Part shown: piece by piece, positions 1,162-38,523 of the stretch
Layout of the letters: each line of letters begins with the position of its first letter
Position numbering within the stretch: position 1 is the stretch's first letter
From: Escherichia phage T4_ev151
Length of the DNA: 64,000 nt
Sequence record: LR597660
Direction: 5' to 3' (one strand)
Made by a program: the position numbers and the translations under genes
The notes under the pieces: model-generated
Database searches by the model: none
Told to the model about the DNA's origin: nothing
The model's input: only the letters and a program-made list of their open reading frames with translations

Positions 1162-1422
1162 TTATTTCATATTATTGAAATATTCTTCTGCGATTTCGTC
1201 GTTATCATGGTAAACTTTAGAAGACAGTTTAACATAACCTTCTGCTGTGAACATATTAATCACAACTTTTACAGTATACCACTGACCGTCTTCATTACCC
1301 ATTACTGCGTAAGTTTCAAACATCGGATGATCAGGACCGATAACTTTAATATCATTCACTGTACGACCGAAATCTTCTGAAACGCATTTCATAAAGAAGT
1401 TGAACAGTTCGCCGTAATTATC
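1162..1422 (-). CDS. hypothetical small protein (start trimmed to ATG at 1422, MDNYGELFNFF...)
   Basis: ORF-track N-terminus overlaps an early promoter; internal ATG preceded by GGAGAATGAA SD. Confidence 0.5.
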   Translation of the reverse strand, partial: DNYGELFNFFMKCVSEDFGRTVNDIKVIGPDHPMFETYAVMGNEDGQWYTVKVVINMFTAEGYVKLSSKVYHDNDEIAEEYFNNMK

Positions 1423-1468
1423 CATTTCATTCTCCAAGTTGTTTTCTGTATCAGTAGTTGATAGTTGT

Positions 1469-1498
1469 ATAGTACCATGGAAGAACAGAGATGTAAAC
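1469..1498 (-). promoter_or_regulatory. T4 early-type promoter (-35 GTTTACA, 17-bp spacer, -10 TACTAT)
   Basis: Minus-strand read CTGTTTACA-N17-TACTAT about 45 nt upstream of ATG at 1422. Confidence 0.5.
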
Positions 1499-1621
1499 AG
1501 TTTTGTGAAAAAATTTTTAGGGAATTCTAGGGCAGGGATGGGCAATTAAAGGATAGGATAATATATTATAAAGGGTATAAACTAAATGATGCCTAGAGAG
1601 GTCCAGAAAGGCCTAGATACC

Positions 1622-1647
1622 AAAAAGCCCTATCATTTAGATAGGGA
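1622..1647 (-). terminator. intrinsic terminator hairpin (CCCTATC/GATAGGG stem followed by U-run)
   Basis: 7-bp inverted repeat then UUUUU on the minus-strand transcript, directly after the stop of the 1655..2218 gene. Confidence 0.55.
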
Positions 1648-1654
1648 TTTAAAA

Positions 1655-2218
1655 TTATTTACCTAGTTTAGTTATTATAGCTTCTGCAGCAGCTTTTAGC
1701 TTAGATGCAGTGTTAATACGATTTTTAATTTCAGTATACGCATCGCCAAGAACATCAAGGCTATCAGAATAAACACTTACACTATTGCGTTCGCTATTTG
1801 AAATAGAACCTTTAGTTTTACGATCAAAATCGGTGTACACGTCTTGAAGATCGCGGGCTGCCTTCTTTGCATCATCCAATGCATCAAGAGCTTTATTCAA
1901 AGCATTAACGTATTTTTTGGTGTCGAACATATTCTTAGAAATTTTAACAGGTGCACGTTCAGGAGTAGCTAATACAGATTTAGGAACCTGAGCGCCAGAT
2001 GCCAATTTCTTAGAAATTTTGAAAAATGCTTTATTGAATTTATTTTCTTGACTCATTGTAAAAGAACTATTATCGATGTTGTACATTTCAATAGCTTTAG
2101 CTTTCCACTTAAGAAAATCGCCGCGGTCTTTTGGGTCCAAGTGGAAGAATACTTTAGTAAGATCTGCTTCAGATGGTAATTTTGCTGCTTCGGTTAAAAA
2201 TTCTGCATAGGTTTTCAT
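1655..2218 (-). CDS. internal (capsid-packaged) protein with N-terminal capsid-targeting sequence MKTYAEFLTE (IPIII-like)
   Basis: N-terminus matches the T4 internal-protein CTS consensus MK(T/S)Y(Q/A)EF(I/L)(A/T)E, which ends in the gp21 prohead-protease cleavage motif; SD AAGGAT upstream. Confidence 0.65.
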   Translation of the reverse strand: MKTYAEFLTEAAKLPSEADLTKVFFHLDPKDRGDFLKWKAKAIEMYNIDNSSFTMSQENKFNKAFFKISKKLASGAQVPKSVLATPERAPVKISKNMFDTKKYVNALNKALDALDDAKKAARDLQDVYTDFDRKTKGSISNSERNSVSVYSDSLDVLGDAYTEIKNRINTASKLKAAAEAIITKLGK

Positions 2219-2308
2219 TTAAAATCCTTGAAATAATCTATCGGTTGGTTATTAATTATTTATTACTTTGTTATTATCCGTAACAGCGTTATCCGAGTGA
2301 TTCAAACT

Positions 2309-2335
2309 AAAAAGCCCCAACCTTTCGGTCGGGGC
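2309..2335 (-). terminator. intrinsic terminator ending the tRNA/stable-RNA transcription unit
   Basis: 9-bp stem (one G-U) with GAAA loop followed by UUUUU on the minus-strand read GCCCCGACC-GAAA-GGTTGGGGC-UUUUU. Confidence 0.6.
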
Positions 2336-2336
2336 T

Positions 2337-2652
2337 AAGCCTTGCGGCAACCTTGTCGGGGTTCCACCTGCTAAGGCAAGTGTTTGTACGAAACGCCGGG
2401 ATTCGAACCCGGTTATCAAGCAGTTGACGCTACTCAATATTTTTAAAAGGCCATATCTCGACCATATCCGAACGTTCCGTCAAAAACGCTACTCGGCTTA
2501 CGGCAAAGATATTTCCTCGAATCGATAATTCGGTGCGCCGTTTCTGCTGTGATATAAGGGGGCATTAACAAAACATAAAGATTTATTAATGCCAGTCCTT
2601 AAACAGGGAACATCAGTCCGACGACTTGCCGGTAGCGACCCGGCTTCTTGTC
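2337..2652 (-). ncRNA. stable RNA region downstream of tRNA-Arg (T4 species 1/species 2 rnaC/rnaD-like), containing a tRNA-like T-arm
   Basis: No credible CDS; lies between tRNA-Arg and a strong terminator, as in T4 tRNA subcluster II; GGGTTCGAATCCCGG T-arm motif near 2396-2410 and several stem-loops; exact RNA ends not determined. Confidence 0.4.
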
Positions 2653-2732: not shown

Positions 2733-3398
2733 TTAAAATTTCATTTTTCGACCTTTAAACCATCCTTCTGGAATTGGGTCAGTTTTCTTAATACGTTTAG
2801 AAACTTTTTCATCTAATGAATGAATCCACATCATACCAAATTGGGAATTCTTTTCGCCCTGTTGATGTTTATTTCTGGCGTGAGATTCTTTCATTTTATT
2901 AATAGTTTCAGGAGTATGGGTCTTACCCAAGAAAGATTTAGTATTTAAAAATTTCTCTCTATACTTAGGATTATCCCAAAGCCGTTTAAACCTTTCTGAA
3001 CCCATTTTACGATATTTTTCTTTAAGGTCTGGGTCGTTCTCAAATCTGGTTTTAAAAGCGGCAGCTCCTTTTAAGGAAGCTTCTTTCTTTTTATCCAAAT
3101 ATTCTTTAGTGTTTAAATGGTCCCAACCACCTTCACCACCTAATTTCAAATTATAAACATCAGGGCGCTTTAAAAACTCTTCAGTCACAATATTCTTTTC
3201 TGACTCAAACATAGAGGTTTTATCGTCAAAGAACTCTAATATTTCTTTAGAAAAATTTTCTATACCATACTTATCTTGGGCTCTTTTTAATAATTTACCA
3301 GAACCCATATATCCATCATCTAAATTTTCGGTAGAATGAGCGCCTATATAGATTTTATTATTAATTTTATTTGTTATTTTATAAATGTAATGGAACAT
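2733..3398 (-). CDS. segB: GIY-YIG homing endonuclease SegB-like, within the tRNA cluster
   Basis: 221-aa ORF; N-terminal IYKITN...KIYIGAHST...[14 protein letters not shown] module; position between tRNA subclusters as T4 segB; SD AGGAGA upstream. Confidence 0.85.
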   Translation of the reverse strand: MFHYIYKITNKINNKIYIGAHSTENLDDGYMGSGKLLKRAQDKYGIENFSKEILEFFDDKTSMFESEKNIVTEEFLKRPDVYNLKLGGEGGWDHLNTKEYLDKKKEASLKGAAAFKTRFENDPDLKEKYRKMGSERFKRLWDNPKYREKFLNTKSFLGKTHTPETINKMKESHARNKHQQGEKNSQFGMMWIHSLDEKVSKRIKKTDPIPEGWFKGRKMKF

Positions 3399-3943: not shown

Positions 3944-4576
3944 TTATTTATTACGTGAAAAAGACTGTTCTATCAATTCTGGACACTTTCGTTCTATCCA
4001 TTTTCTAGCTTTTTGTGGGCTTATACCTATTATTTTAGCAGCTTTACTAACCCATCCAAATTTAGAATAATCGATTTTAACTAATTCTTCGTAAATTTCA
4101 TCAGTTAAAATCTTTTCATTAATATTTACCAGTAAATGATATAATTTATTATCATTAGCAATTTTAATGAATCTTTTATAGTTTCCGCCTTTACTTAAAC
4201 CTAATGAAGTAATTGCAGATGATATAGTAGCCGAATTTAATAGTGCGTTTAAAATTTCTTCATCACTAACATTATAACGCTTTCTATTATTTTTAATATT
4301 TTTACCAGCAAAAGTATCAGTTTGCGAATGGCAATTTGGGCATAATAATCTTAAATTTGATTTAAGATGATTTTTGTTATTTCCATCAATATGGTCTAAT
4401 TGTAGAACAATATGCTTATTTTGCCATTTTGAAATTTTACAAATTGCACACTCATATGGAAAAATATTTTCTTTTATTATTTTGTCTTTCAGCTTTCCTG
4501 TACTAAAATTTGGATGTTTTCCTTCAAAAATTTCAGCTAATTTAGTATCCATAATATGATTCCCAATTATTAACAA
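3944..4576 (-). CDS. HNH homing endonuclease, abutting the 5-prime end of the tRNA cluster
   Basis: 210-aa ORF with HNH core LDHIDGNNKNH...NLRLLCPNCH and an upstream CxxC pair; stop codon 6 nt from tRNA-Leu. Confidence 0.8.
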   Translation of the reverse strand: MLIIGNHIMDTKLAEIFEGKHPNFSTGKLKDKIIKENIFPYECAICKISKWQNKHIVLQLDHIDGNNKNHLKSNLRLLCPNCHSQTDTFAGKNIKNNRKRYNVSDEEILNALLNSATISSAITSLGLSKGGNYKRFIKIANDNKLYHLLVNINEKILTDEIYEELVKIDYSKFGWVSKAAKIIGISPQKARKWIERKCPELIEQSFSRNK

Positions 4577-5581: not shown

Positions 5582-5815
5582 TTATTTTTTACGAAAAATT
5601 GATTTATATTTATCAGCCCATTTCTCGATGACTTTTTCTGGTCCATAGATAACAAAATAATCACCAAACTCTTCACCACCGAGCTGACCGAAATTATCTA
5701 ATGCATCACGAAGAACTCCATGAGGCATTTCGCCCATTTTATCTTTCTTACCAATGTAAATAAACTCAACTTTTACATCAGCAGCTTCAGCAATAAATTC
5801 TTGATACGTTTTCAT
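5582..5815 (-). CDS. ipI: internal protein I-like (capsid-targeting sequence MKTYQEFIAE followed by a small mature domain)
   Basis: ATG at 5815 with GGAGAATAAA SD; N-terminal 10 residues match the T4 IP capsid-targeting sequence; position immediately downstream of 57B as in T4; track ORF is longer through a GTG start. Confidence 0.7.
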   Translation of the reverse strand: MKTYQEFIAEAADVKVEFIYIGKKDKMGEMPHGVLRDALDNFGQLGGEEFGDYFVIYGPEKVIEKWADKYKSIFRKK

Positions 5816-5851
5816 TTTATTCTCCAATTTCACATTTGTTTTGATAGGGTA

Positions 5852-5881
5852 ATAGTATCACTACTAAAACCCCGTGTAAAC
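5852..5881 (-). promoter_or_regulatory. T4 early-type promoter (-35 GTTTACA, 17-bp spacer, -10 TACTAT) upstream of ipI
   Basis: Minus-strand read AAAGTTGTTTACA-N17-TACTAT; shares the extended AAAGTTGTTTACA motif with the promoter at 63888..63917. Confidence 0.55.
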
Positions 5882-5893
5882 AACTTTGTGAAA

Positions 5894-6578
<685 letters not shown>

Positions 6579-36620: not shown

Positions 36621-37045
36621 TGCTTCTGATCCCTGAAACTCATGAATTAGTTCTCGAGAATGTCGAAGCACTTATTCCTGAAGCACAGGGTCGCTTTGAC
36701 GAATTGTCTTCTGCTTTAAATAAAGACGATATAAATACAATTGTCGAGAATATGCTTGATGATGAAACTGATTTAGCGGTTGCATTAGCTTCTATTAATG
36801 AAAATATGCCGTTAAATGAATTCATCGTTAAACATGTTTCCGCCCGTGGTGAAATTACTCGCACTAAAGACCGCAAAACGCGTGAACGTAATGCATTTCA
36901 AACCACTGGGCTGTCTAAAGCAAAACGTAGACAAATTGCTCGTAAAGCTACCAAAACGAAGATTGCCAATCCAGCAGGTCAATCTCGTGCTCAGCGTAAG
37001 CGTAAAAAAGCTCTTAAACGCCGTAAAGCATTAGGATTAAGCTAA
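36620..37045 (+). CDS. 68: gp68 prohead core protein
   Basis: 141 aa; synteny; basic C-terminus. Confidence 0.8.
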
Positions 37046-37683
37046 TGAATGAACCCCAATTACTAATTGAAACTTGGGGTCAACCTGGCGAAATTATTGA
37101 TGGCGTGCCAATGCTTGAATCTCACGATGGAAAAGACTTAGGTTTAAAACCGGGTTTATACATCGAAGGAATATTCATGCAAGCGGAAGTCGTCAATAGA
37201 AATAAACGTCTTTATCCAAAACGTATATTAGAAAAAGCGGTAAAAGACTATATTAATGAGCAAGTTTTAACTAAACAAGCTCTCGGAGAATTAAATCATC
37301 CTCCACGCGCTAATGTTGACCCGATGCAAGCCGCTATCATTATAGAAGATATGTGGTGGAAAGGAAATGACGTATACGGACGAGCTCGTGTTATTGAAGG
37401 TGACCATGGTCCTGGAGATAAATTAGCAGCTAATATTCGTGCCGGATGGATTCCAGGAGTTTCTTCTCGTGGATTAGGTTCATTGACTGACACAAATAAA
37501 GGTTATCGTATCGTAAACGAAGGATTCAAATTAACTGTAGGTGTTGATGCAGTATGGGGTCCAAGTGCTCCAGATGCATGGGTAACTCCTAAGGAAATTA
37601 CCGAATCACAGACGGCGGAAGCCGATACAAGTGCCGATGACGCCTATATGGCTCTCGCAGAGGCCATGAAAAAAGCGTTATAA
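37045..37683 (+). CDS. 21: gp21 prohead core scaffold / maturation protease
   Basis: 212 aa as T4 gp21; synteny. Confidence 0.9.
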   Translation: MNEPQLLIETWGQPGEIIDGVPMLESHDGKDLGLKPGLYIEGIFMQAEVVNRNKRLYPKRILEKAVKDYINEQVLTKQALGELNHPPRANVDPMQAAIIIEDMWWKGNDVYGRARVIEGDHGPGDKLAANIRAGWIPGVSSRGLGSLTDTNKGYRIVNEGFKLTVGVDAVWGPSAPDAWVTPKEITESQTAEADTSADDAYMALAEAMKKAL

Positions 37684-37713: not shown

Positions 37714-38523
37714 ATGCTTAAAGAACAACTGATTGCCGAAGCGCAGAAAATTGATGCTTCCGTTGCTCTTGATAGTATTTTCGAATCAGTTAATATTTCT
37801 CCGGAAGCAAAAGAAACTTTCGGCACTGTATTCGAAGCTACCGTCAAGCAGCACGCCGTTAAATTAGCTGAATCTCATATCGCTAAAATTGCTGAAAAAG
37901 CAGAAGAAGAAGTAGAAAAAAATAAAGAAGAAGCAGAAGAAAAAGCTGAGAAGAAAATCGCTGAGCAAGCTTCTAAATTCCTTGACCATCTTGCAAAAGA
38001 ATGGCTCACTGAAAATAAATTAGCAGTAGATAAAGGTATCAAAGCCGAACTGTTTGAATCCATGCTTGGTGGATTGAAAGAGCTCTTCGTTGAACACAAC
38101 GTTGTTGTTCCAGAAGAATCAGTTGATGTTGTAGCTGAAATGGAAGAAGAACTGCAAGAACATAAAGAAGAATCAGCTCGTCTGTTCGAAGAACTCAATA
38201 AGCGTGACGCATATATCAATTATGTGCAGCGTGAAGTGGCATTGAGCGAAAGTACTAAAGATCTGACTGAGTCTCAAAAAGAAAAAGTCTCTGCTCTGGT
38301 CGAAGGTATGGATTATTCAGATGCATTCTCAAGTAAATTGAGTGCAATCGTAGAAATGGTGAAGAAATCTAATAAAGATGAAAGCACTATTACTGAGAGT
38401 ATAAATACTCCTGATACTGAAGCAGCCGGACTGAATTTCGTCACTGAAGCTGTAGAAGATAAATCTGCACAAGGTGCAGAAGATATTGTAAGTGTATATG
38501 CGAAAGTCGCATCTCGTTTCTAA
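37714..38523 (+). CDS. 22: gp22 prohead core scaffold protein
   Basis: 269 aa, acidic coiled coil; synteny. Confidence 0.85.
   Translation: MLKEQLIAEAQKIDASVALDSIFESVNISPEAKETFGTVFEATVKQHAVKLAESHIAKIAEKAEEEVEKNKEEAEEKAEKKIAEQASKFLDHLAKEWLTENKLAVDKGIKAELFESMLGGLKELFVEHNVVVPEESVDVVAEMEEELQEHKEESARLFEELNKRDAYINYVQREVALSESTKDLTESQKEKVSALVEGMDYSDAFSSKLSAIVEMVKKSNKDESTITESINTPDTEAAGLNFVTEAVEDKSAQGAEDIVSVYAKVASRF

Follow-up and report, generated by a model that had tools for sequence, protein, structure and literature searches.

A candidate internal head protein gene with a capsid-targeting leader at the rnaC-e.8 locus of Escherichia phage T4_ev151

We analysed a 64,000-nt stretch of DNA from Escherichia phage T4_ev151 (sequence record LR597660; hereafter the window, one strand read 5' to 3') and focused on an open reading frame (ORF) of 187 amino acids (aa) located between the rnaC RNA gene and e.8. 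This gene quite probably encodes the precursor of an internal head protein, which would be packaged, cleaved by the prohead protease gp21 and injected. A sequence-only reading of the same DNA had already proposed a T4-type internal protein, and this proposal agrees with everything that can be checked at the level of sequence, i.e., the determinants of the capsid-targeting sequence (CTS), the cleavage tripeptide, the presence of gp21 and gp22, a promoter-like box, a basic product and the conservation of the leader. We infer late expression, packaging, cleavage at Glu10 and injection, and for packaging and cleavage this inference from sequence is well supported. An anti-restriction activity of the product is proposed by analogy only. 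Coordinates of the features are collected in Table 1.

The capsid-targeting leader and the cassette that carries it

The product begins with MKTYAEFLTEAAKLPSE, and its first residues can be written as MKTYAEFLTE↓AAK, where the arrow here and below marks the known or predicted point of cleavage. Seven of the first ten residues are identical to the leader of T4 IPII and IPIII (both MKTYQEFIAE↓A), the N-terminus of T4 IPI being MKTFKEFTSTTTPVSTITE↓A for comparison. All four determinant positions of the CTS (Y4, F7, L8 and E10) are kept; Y4 and F7 are identical to those of IPII and IPIII, and L8 is a conservative change from I8. According to mutagenesis, targeting rests mainly on CTS residues 4 and 7 and processing on residues 8 and 10, with Asp at position 10 stopping cleavage; incorporation into the head needs no more than the first ten residues of IPIII, and this leader alone packages green fluorescent protein, a nuclease and beta-galactosidase (PMC9026906).

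Positions 8-10 of the candidate (LTE) fit the gp21 motif (L/I)xE with Glu at P1, as the sequence-only reading had recognised, and the same tripeptide in T4 Alt, LTE-619, is a gp21 site verified by mass spectrometry (PMC5694885). Because no [LI]xE site other than LTE-10 occurs in the 187-aa protein, the cargo should survive gp21 processing. The predicted cut after Glu10 would leave the N-terminal semi-tryptic peptide AAKLPSEADLTK on a mature protein whose length had been correctly given as 177 aa. When the loose CTS pattern M..[YF].[ED][FILV][LI].E was searched for in the six-frame translation of the window, exactly two matches were found, with 0.03 expected from shuffles, and both are N-termini of ORFs, namely those of the candidate and of the ipI-locus gene. 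The machinery is encoded in the window as well: gp21, gp22 and gp67 are present, and gp22 is known to co-purify with internal proteins (PMC9026906).

The ipI-locus gene of the same phage serves as a comparator, and its 77-aa product resembles the candidate in the first 10-12 residues only. This gene is different from that of T4 IPI, having an IPII/IPIII-type leader and a near-identical gene in T6; its mature product has an isoelectric point (pI) near neutral (6.8), and an early-type promoter (GTTTAC, 17-nt spacer, TACTAT; region 5816-5900) with no TATAAATA box is found upstream. T4 ipI, ipII and ipIII likewise carry early-type promoters. The candidate lies about 3.4 kb from the ipI-locus gene, with the tRNA cluster, segB and an HNH gene between them. 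Its position outside the ipI locus was thus stated correctly in the sequence-only reading, but such a position is not unusual in itself, since ipII and ipIII of T4 are also located elsewhere.

The gene forms a self-contained cassette, consisting of a terminator, a late-promoter-like box, a Shine-Dalgarno site, the ORF and a second terminator, placed between rnaC and e.8. Read along the direction of transcription, tRNA-Arg (2653-2729) is followed by the homologues of rnaD and rnaC, then by the rnaC terminator, the AATAAATA box, the Shine-Dalgarno site, the ORF, its terminator and the e.8 region. The GC content of the ORF (35.3%) is close to that of the window (35.7%). The first 6.5 kb of the window are 94-97% identical to many Tequatrovirus (T4-like) genomes, and every gene there is on the minus strand.

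The phrog_2280 family and its polymorphic locus

The candidate matches phrog_2280, a family of "unknown function", with an E value of 9.7e-54 (residues 1-181 against profile positions 1-178). Relatives with 86-100% identity are present in 164 phage records (tblastn), every one of them annotated as "hypothetical protein". Phages that carry the gene include pSs-1, PBM-1, HP3 and KarlGJung. Single-sequence searches reached only relatives at least 89% identical, and an exhaustive HMMER search over 1.8 billion cluster representatives gave one distant relative (P0013; 31% identity, E 5e-6), whose N-terminus is MITFNEFLNE↓S. Used as a bridge query, P0013 led to 350 phage records in Karamvirus, Marfavirus, Mosigvirus and others; the homologues of these three genera and P0013 match the phrog_2280 profile too. 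Family members in Karamvirus, Marfavirus, Mosigvirus and Jiaodavirus and the metagenomic relative share only some 20-30% identity and occupy the same position past the tRNA/rnaC region, and in PG7, Marfa, ESh15 and KP1 the homologue is found between the tRNA cluster and the e.8 region.

An alignment of about 40 cluster representatives built from the profile search (A3) shows cargo only 16-27% identical to the window protein (about 20% across genera). The N-termini in this alignment include MKTYNEFLNE↓S, MYTFNEFLAE↓T, MLKFKDILTE↓S, MLNFNEFITE↓S, MLKFKEFISE↓A, MNFKEFLNE↓A and MKFKEFLAE↓A, and 29 of the 30 full-length members retain the motif [YF]x[EDQ][FILV][LI]xE, the end of which is at residue 9-10. 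A leader that is kept while the cargo diverges is the signature expected of a functional leader. Upstream of the genes, a NATAAATA box is found 31-46 nt 5' of every family member checked, a terminator precedes each box, and in PG7, ESh15 and KP1 the box is an exact TATAAATA. This heptamer occurs at a frequency of 2.8e-4 per position, which corresponds to a chance of 0.0045 per locus for the 16-nt span.

The mature product (19.7 kDa, pI 9.54) is basic, as are all homologues (pI 9.5-9.8), and is predicted to be all-helical. AlphaFold2 with the A3 alignment gives a mean predicted local distance difference test (pLDDT) score of 80 with low confidence for leader residues 1-11, and it places an N-terminal helical domain and a C-terminal helix bundle on the two sides of a short linker, which in homologues has grown into a Pro/Ala/Lys-rich tract. 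A Foldseek search of the model against PDB found no fold match (best E 0.59), and BFVD gave family members only; the best hit of the PDB sequence profile search was an occludin coiled coil (E 0.046), which we regard as negative. Pfam scans of all members yielded only sub-threshold helical noise, and NCBIfam yielded nothing.

Several family members have rearranged architectures. In A3 rows P0039-P0044, the leader, the N-terminal domain and the PAK linker are kept and followed by an unrelated C-terminal domain (…LKVRGKYGSIIGSG…LVELSKQSGLSYNA); judged from the alignment, this is domain swapping, and the family architecture appears modular. Four metagenome-derived proteins (P0010, P0011, P0012 and P0014) represent truncated or chimeric forms of the gene. 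In P0011 residues 97-122 are followed by a NudE-like Nudix C-terminus, in P0010 the C-terminal domain is preceded by an unrelated N-terminus, and in P0014 the last 28 residues are attached to the e.8 N-terminus. These four suggest either that deletions or rearrangements are frequent across the e.1-e.8 region or that the assemblies are chimeric. On the Logan contig SRR28624380_555336 (L003), directly downstream of the P0013 gene, a 144-aa protein (2092-2526; MITFKQFLNE↓S) combines a P0013-type leader with an ADP-ribosyltransferase domain of the ART-PolyVal/DUF3990 type (E 1.9e-11), and a CATAAATA box lies upstream; from its sequence it looks like a small CTS-targeted analogue of Alt.

The locus is polymorphic among T4-like phages. 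In a blastn comparison, positions 1123-1646 and 2306-2656 of the window align to T4, flanking about 677 bp that T4 lacks. The two junctions of this segment have GGGCTTTTT in common, which is the tail of both terminators, and T4 fuses the rnaC hairpin directly to the sequence past the cassette's own terminator. No copy of the 187-aa gene was found in T4, T2, T6 or phiD1 by tblastn of the loci, blastn against T4 and inspection of annotations.

In pSs-1 (L007:9687-10160) and PBM-1, a 157-aa paralogue is located just upstream of the 187-aa gene and starts with MKSYAQFLNE↓AVLNE; the 187-aa protein of PBM-1 is identical to that of the window. The paralogue, also named pSs-1 gp151, RB32ORF133c and fD1 g140, has the leader MKSY(A/T)QFLNE↓A and is present in 512 phage records. 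It belongs to the same PHROG family (E 8e-61) and the same locus and has a CTS-like leader, and hhalign gives a probability of 96% against the A3 profile; it differs from the candidate in being shorter, and a pairwise BLAST matches the leader only. It is absent from the window (2219-2652). Four states of the locus have thus been found: empty in T4, T2 and T6; the 157-aa gene only in phiD1 (L009:7943-8416); the 187-aa gene only in this window; and both genes in tandem in pSs-1 and PBM-1. The arrangement resembles the promoter/stem-loop cassettes of T4-type genomes, by which accessory genes are shuffled as modules, in that the gene is a self-contained unit between terminator hairpins with a common GGGCTTTTT and the locus has 0, 1 or 2 copies. 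Published cassettes of this kind have early promoters, whereas the box of the candidate is of the late type.

RB69, a Mosigvirus, has a Tequatrovirus-type allele (L012:11429-11991; about 90-97% identical) unlike the Mosigvirus-type allele in ESh15, and this implies, at the sequence level, exchange between genera. The RB69 copy is frameshifted after residue 122 in the reference and annotated as two ORFs, ORF149c and ORF148c; it is either a pseudogene or the product of a sequencing error.

The denV-e interval, in which T4 ipIII is located, also varies: pSs-1 (L007 3486-4939) lacks ipII and ipIII, PBM-1 (L008 5437-6914) keeps ipII only, and upstream of denV pSs-1 carries instead an "internal virion protein" of 157 aa (phrog_3155, MKTYQEFITE↓A). 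DNA similar to ipIII was found by megablast in only about 245 phage records. The absence of ipIII from pSs-1 and PBM-1 suggested the idea that the 187-aa gene is a replacement of ipIII. We rejected it, because a megablast search with a chimeric query of ipIII plus the candidate gave 365 records and 410 places, i.e., about 45 records that carry both. AnYang likewise has ipIII plus a phrog_2280 family member.

Packaging, rival explanations and the possible role of the cargo

The course of events that we propose is as follows. A near-consensus late promoter of its own probably drives late transcription of the 187-aa gene, and the ten-residue CTS would recruit the precursor into the gp22 scaffolding core of the assembling prohead. 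Then gp21 would cut after Glu10 (LTE↓AAK), and the basic, all-helical protein of 177 aa would remain in the head with the DNA and enter the host alongside it. By analogy with known internal proteins, its likeliest role in the cell would be to neutralise a first-line nuclease defence, most plausibly a variant of the GmrSD-type Type IV restriction enzyme.

Virion proteomics gives information on the paralogue. The fD1 (phiD1) protein g140, i.e., the 157-aa paralogue (67942-68415, 17.3 kDa; predicted mature N-terminus AVLNEASSTEIQAVAK), was scored as particle-associated in liquid chromatography-tandem mass spectrometry of fD1 virions purified by ultracentrifugation (PMC8309999 Table S3). To pass the strict threshold of that study, a protein needed 2 or more peptides together with a mean spectral count of 2 or higher (PMC8309999), and g139 (e.8), the neighbour of g140, failed it (PMC8309999 Table S3).

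The basis of the analogy is the group of T4 internal proteins. Each of Ip1, Ip2 and Ip3 is an inhibitor of a different GmrSD Type IV restriction enzyme, and the authors of that study propose that the products of "two Ip loci" all target GmrSD variants; no inhibitors of five further active GmrSD groups were found among ip4-10 (PMC12373910). IPIII is needed by T4 to infect ECOR17 (PMC9391042). Neither of these two loci contains the candidate, and a search of the supplement of PMC12373910 did not turn up its sequence. BLASTP and hhalign detected no homology of the candidate to Ip1, Ip2 or Ip3, and this lowers the claim of kinship with Ip1-3, not the claim of working like them.

IPIII (Ip3) is close to the candidate in build. 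Both have a ten-residue leader of the MKTYxEF(I/L)xE type with cleavage at Glu10, which is predicted in the candidate, and both genes are non-essential accessory genes; the mature IPIII* has 183 aa, 20.4 kDa and pI 9.65, close to the values of the candidate. They differ in locus (denV-e for ipIII, rnaC-e.8 for the candidate) and in promoter, ipIII having an early-type promoter and the candidate a late-type box. The alignment with IPII and IPIII that the sequence-only reading had recommended proved uninformative, similarity being limited to the leader. BLASTP aligns residues 1-12 only with IPIII, and orthology with IPIII, IPII and IPI was rejected because BLASTP finds the leader only and the hhalign probabilities (26%, 8% and 5%, respectively) are all confined to the N-terminus.

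T4 IPII (Ip2), IPI (Ip1) and ip4-ip10 of the ipI locus share with the candidate the principle of a CTS leader on unrelated, variable cargo, and injection is a feature of theirs; they differ in that their cargo is unrelated to that of the candidate, which is larger and conserved across genera, whereas theirs is restricted to few strains. T4 Alt is another injected protein packaged in the head, and gp21 cuts it at ITE-6 and at LTE-619, the latter being the tripeptide of the candidate (PMC5694885). It differs as a packaged ADP-ribosyltransferase, since the candidate has no enzymatic domain and a leader of the IPII/IPIII type.

The rival that survives best accepts that the product is a packaged internal protein but assigns it a structural or DNA-associated role, such as charge neutralisation, organisation or coating of the DNA, or assembly of the prohead core, the last as reported for IPIII. 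The basic pI of the mature protein in all members, the Pro/Ala/Lys-rich linkers of homologues and the synteny across several Tevenvirinae genera can be explained in this manner, and IPIII mutants are known to assemble heads more slowly and to have a smaller burst (PMC9026906). However, the heads of T4, T2 and T6 are normal without the gene and the RB69 copy is frameshifted, so that the gene is dispensable; the presence of 0, 1 or 2 copies at the locus is a pattern of accessory genes, and later work showed that a GmrSD enzyme is inhibited by IPIII itself (PMC12373910). We consider a structural role somewhat unlikely as the actual one; the basic, linker-rich build and the conservation across genera still leave it a serious alternative.

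Much less likely is the explanation that recombination between the 5' ends of genes for internal proteins left the leader behind as a relic and that the protein, never packaged, acts only in the infected cell. Repeated terminator sequences bound the cassette and favour shuffling, T4 internal-protein genes have early-type promoters, and chimeric versions of the gene occur in metagenomes. Yet 29 of 30 members from different genera have retained the leader although identity of the cargo has fallen to about 20%, a pattern that speaks for the leader being under selection; furthermore, the CTS alone packages unrelated proteins (PMC9026906), and the box at the candidate is of the late type, not an early-type promoter.

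A slightly smaller chance still is given to a core or scaffold role, in which the leader would recruit the protein and maturation would then degrade or expel it, as with gp67 and gp68, so that it is never injected. The recruitment leader is identical in type, and the coiled-coil-like helical C-terminal domain of the AlphaFold2 model recalls scaffold proteins, but core proteins are cut into several fragments (PMC9026906) whereas the candidate has one [LI]xE site only, and the paralogue has been detected in mature fD1 virions. That the ORF arose by chance and is no real gene has nothing in its favour except the universal annotation as "hypothetical protein", and the comparative data refute it. 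The ORF has a Shine-Dalgarno site as well as a promoter-like box and a terminator, its product is conserved across genera at a syntenic position, and the aforementioned PHROG match and pLDDT value also speak against a chance ORF.

Returning to the reading as an injected internal protein with a counter-defence role, we gather here the points that weigh against it. Upstream of the 187-aa ORF there is no exact TATAAATA, and the mismatch of its AATAAATA box is at the first position. Because the fD1 preparation also held 113 phage and 672 host proteins (PMC8309999), "particle-associated" is a weak criterion there, supportive but not specific. We found no published proteome of a phage that carries the 187-aa gene; fD1 lacks it, and the fPS-90 paper has no proteome. 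In the portion searched of the virion mass-spectrometry supplement for Jiaodavirus ValerieMcCarty, a phage in which presence of the gene is not established, there were no peptides of the family. The function is unreadable from sequence or fold, the cargo having no detectable similarity to any characterised protein. Finally, the family is conserved and syntenic across genera, unlike the ipI-locus genes with their fast turnover, and a general role in assembly or in association with DNA explains this no less well than a strain-specific inhibitor would.

Neighbouring features and meaning of the locus

Table 1. Positions in the window of the cassette, the parts of the 187-aa product and related head genes
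Feature	Position	Strand	Remarks
Candidate ORF	1655..2218	minus	ATG 2218-2216, TAA 1657-1655; 187-aa precursor of candidate internal protein
CTS codons 1-10, MKTYAEFLTE	2189..2218	minus	ends in predicted gp21 site LTE↓A
N-terminal helical domain, residues 11-75	1994..2188	minus	AlphaFold2 helices 17-26, 35-45, 55-73, pLDDT 70-87; conserved in A3
Short basic linker, residues 76-100	1919..1993	minus	predicted disordered, pLDDT <50 at 76-89; length varies in A3
C-terminal bundle of three long helices, residues 101-187	1658..1918	minus	predicted helices 101-135, 141-153, 158-186, pLDDT >90
Late-promoter-like box AATAAATA	2257..2264	minus	1 mismatch to T4 late promoter TATAAATA; 46 nt 5' of ATG
Shine-Dalgarno AAGGA	2225..2229	minus	6 nt before ATG; direct sequence reading
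Intrinsic-terminator hairpin CCCTATC-TAAAT-GATAGGG, then CTTTTT	1628..1646	minus	begins 9 nt past stop; 3' end of cassette
rnaC terminator hairpin, then TTTTT	2313..2336	minus	5' boundary of cassette
Cassette, ~677 bp	1637..2313	minus	blastn against T4, tblastn against T2/T6/phiD1/T4 loci, annotations
ipI-locus internal protein, 77 aa, MKTYQEFIAE↓AADV	5582..5815	minus	phrog_8111 "internal virion protein", E 2.4e-50
gp21 prohead protease	37045..37683	plus	Pfam Peptidase_S77, E 1.5e-111; predicted to cut after Glu10
gp22 scaffolding core protein	37714..38523	plus	Pfam T4_CASP, E 5e-90; part of structure receiving CTS proteins

Several observations concern the neighbouring region. Two homing-endonuclease genes are located in or beside the tRNA cluster (2733-3398 and 3944-4576, both on the minus strand); one is a segB-like GIY-YIG gene as in T4, and the other, lying between tRNA-Leu and the trna.2 homologue, is an HNH gene that T4 lacks. 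ARAGORN assigned tRNA-Met (CAU anticodon) at the spot annotated as tRNA-Ile in the T4 record, and the tRNA set of the window has no tRNA-Gln. For the e.8 homologue (1162-1545, minus strand), the program-made ORF call reaches an upstream TTG and gives 127 aa; the conserved e.8 protein has 87 aa, phrog_2678 matches residues 41-127, and the extension to 127 aa overlaps the e.8 early-promoter region.

Internal proteins with a CTS and variable cargo are an established class, and it is already known that T4 has internal-protein genes outside the ipI locus. In the searchable literature we found no earlier description of the phrog_2280 family or of the rnaC-e.8 locus as an internal-protein site. What appears to be unreported is that phrog_2280 carries a CTS leader, that there is a third polymorphic locus, and that the gene is absent from the three classical T-even phages. 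A wider proposal, which we put forward tentatively and with the balance somewhat against it, is that rnaC-e.8 is a third, previously unrecognised internal-protein locus of Tevenvirinae, at which an old family of injected basic proteins, phrog_2280, with 0-2 copies per genome and swappable C-terminal domains, has been lost from T2, T4 and T6 and counters a defence outside the coverage of Ip1-10.

If this proposal is true, the target could be a GmrSD group for which no inhibitor has been found, or a different DNA-sensing nuclease, and the third locus would help to explain host-range differences among therapeutic T4-like phages. Several active GmrSD groups are still without a known inhibitor (PMC12373910), and phrog_2280, a widespread family with a CTS that hundreds of genomes list only as "hypothetical protein" and that is missing from the three model T-even phages, is a concrete candidate for those counter-defence specificities that are still missing. 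If the internal-protein reading is confirmed, more than 600 phage records, both paralogues taken together, would have their annotation corrected.

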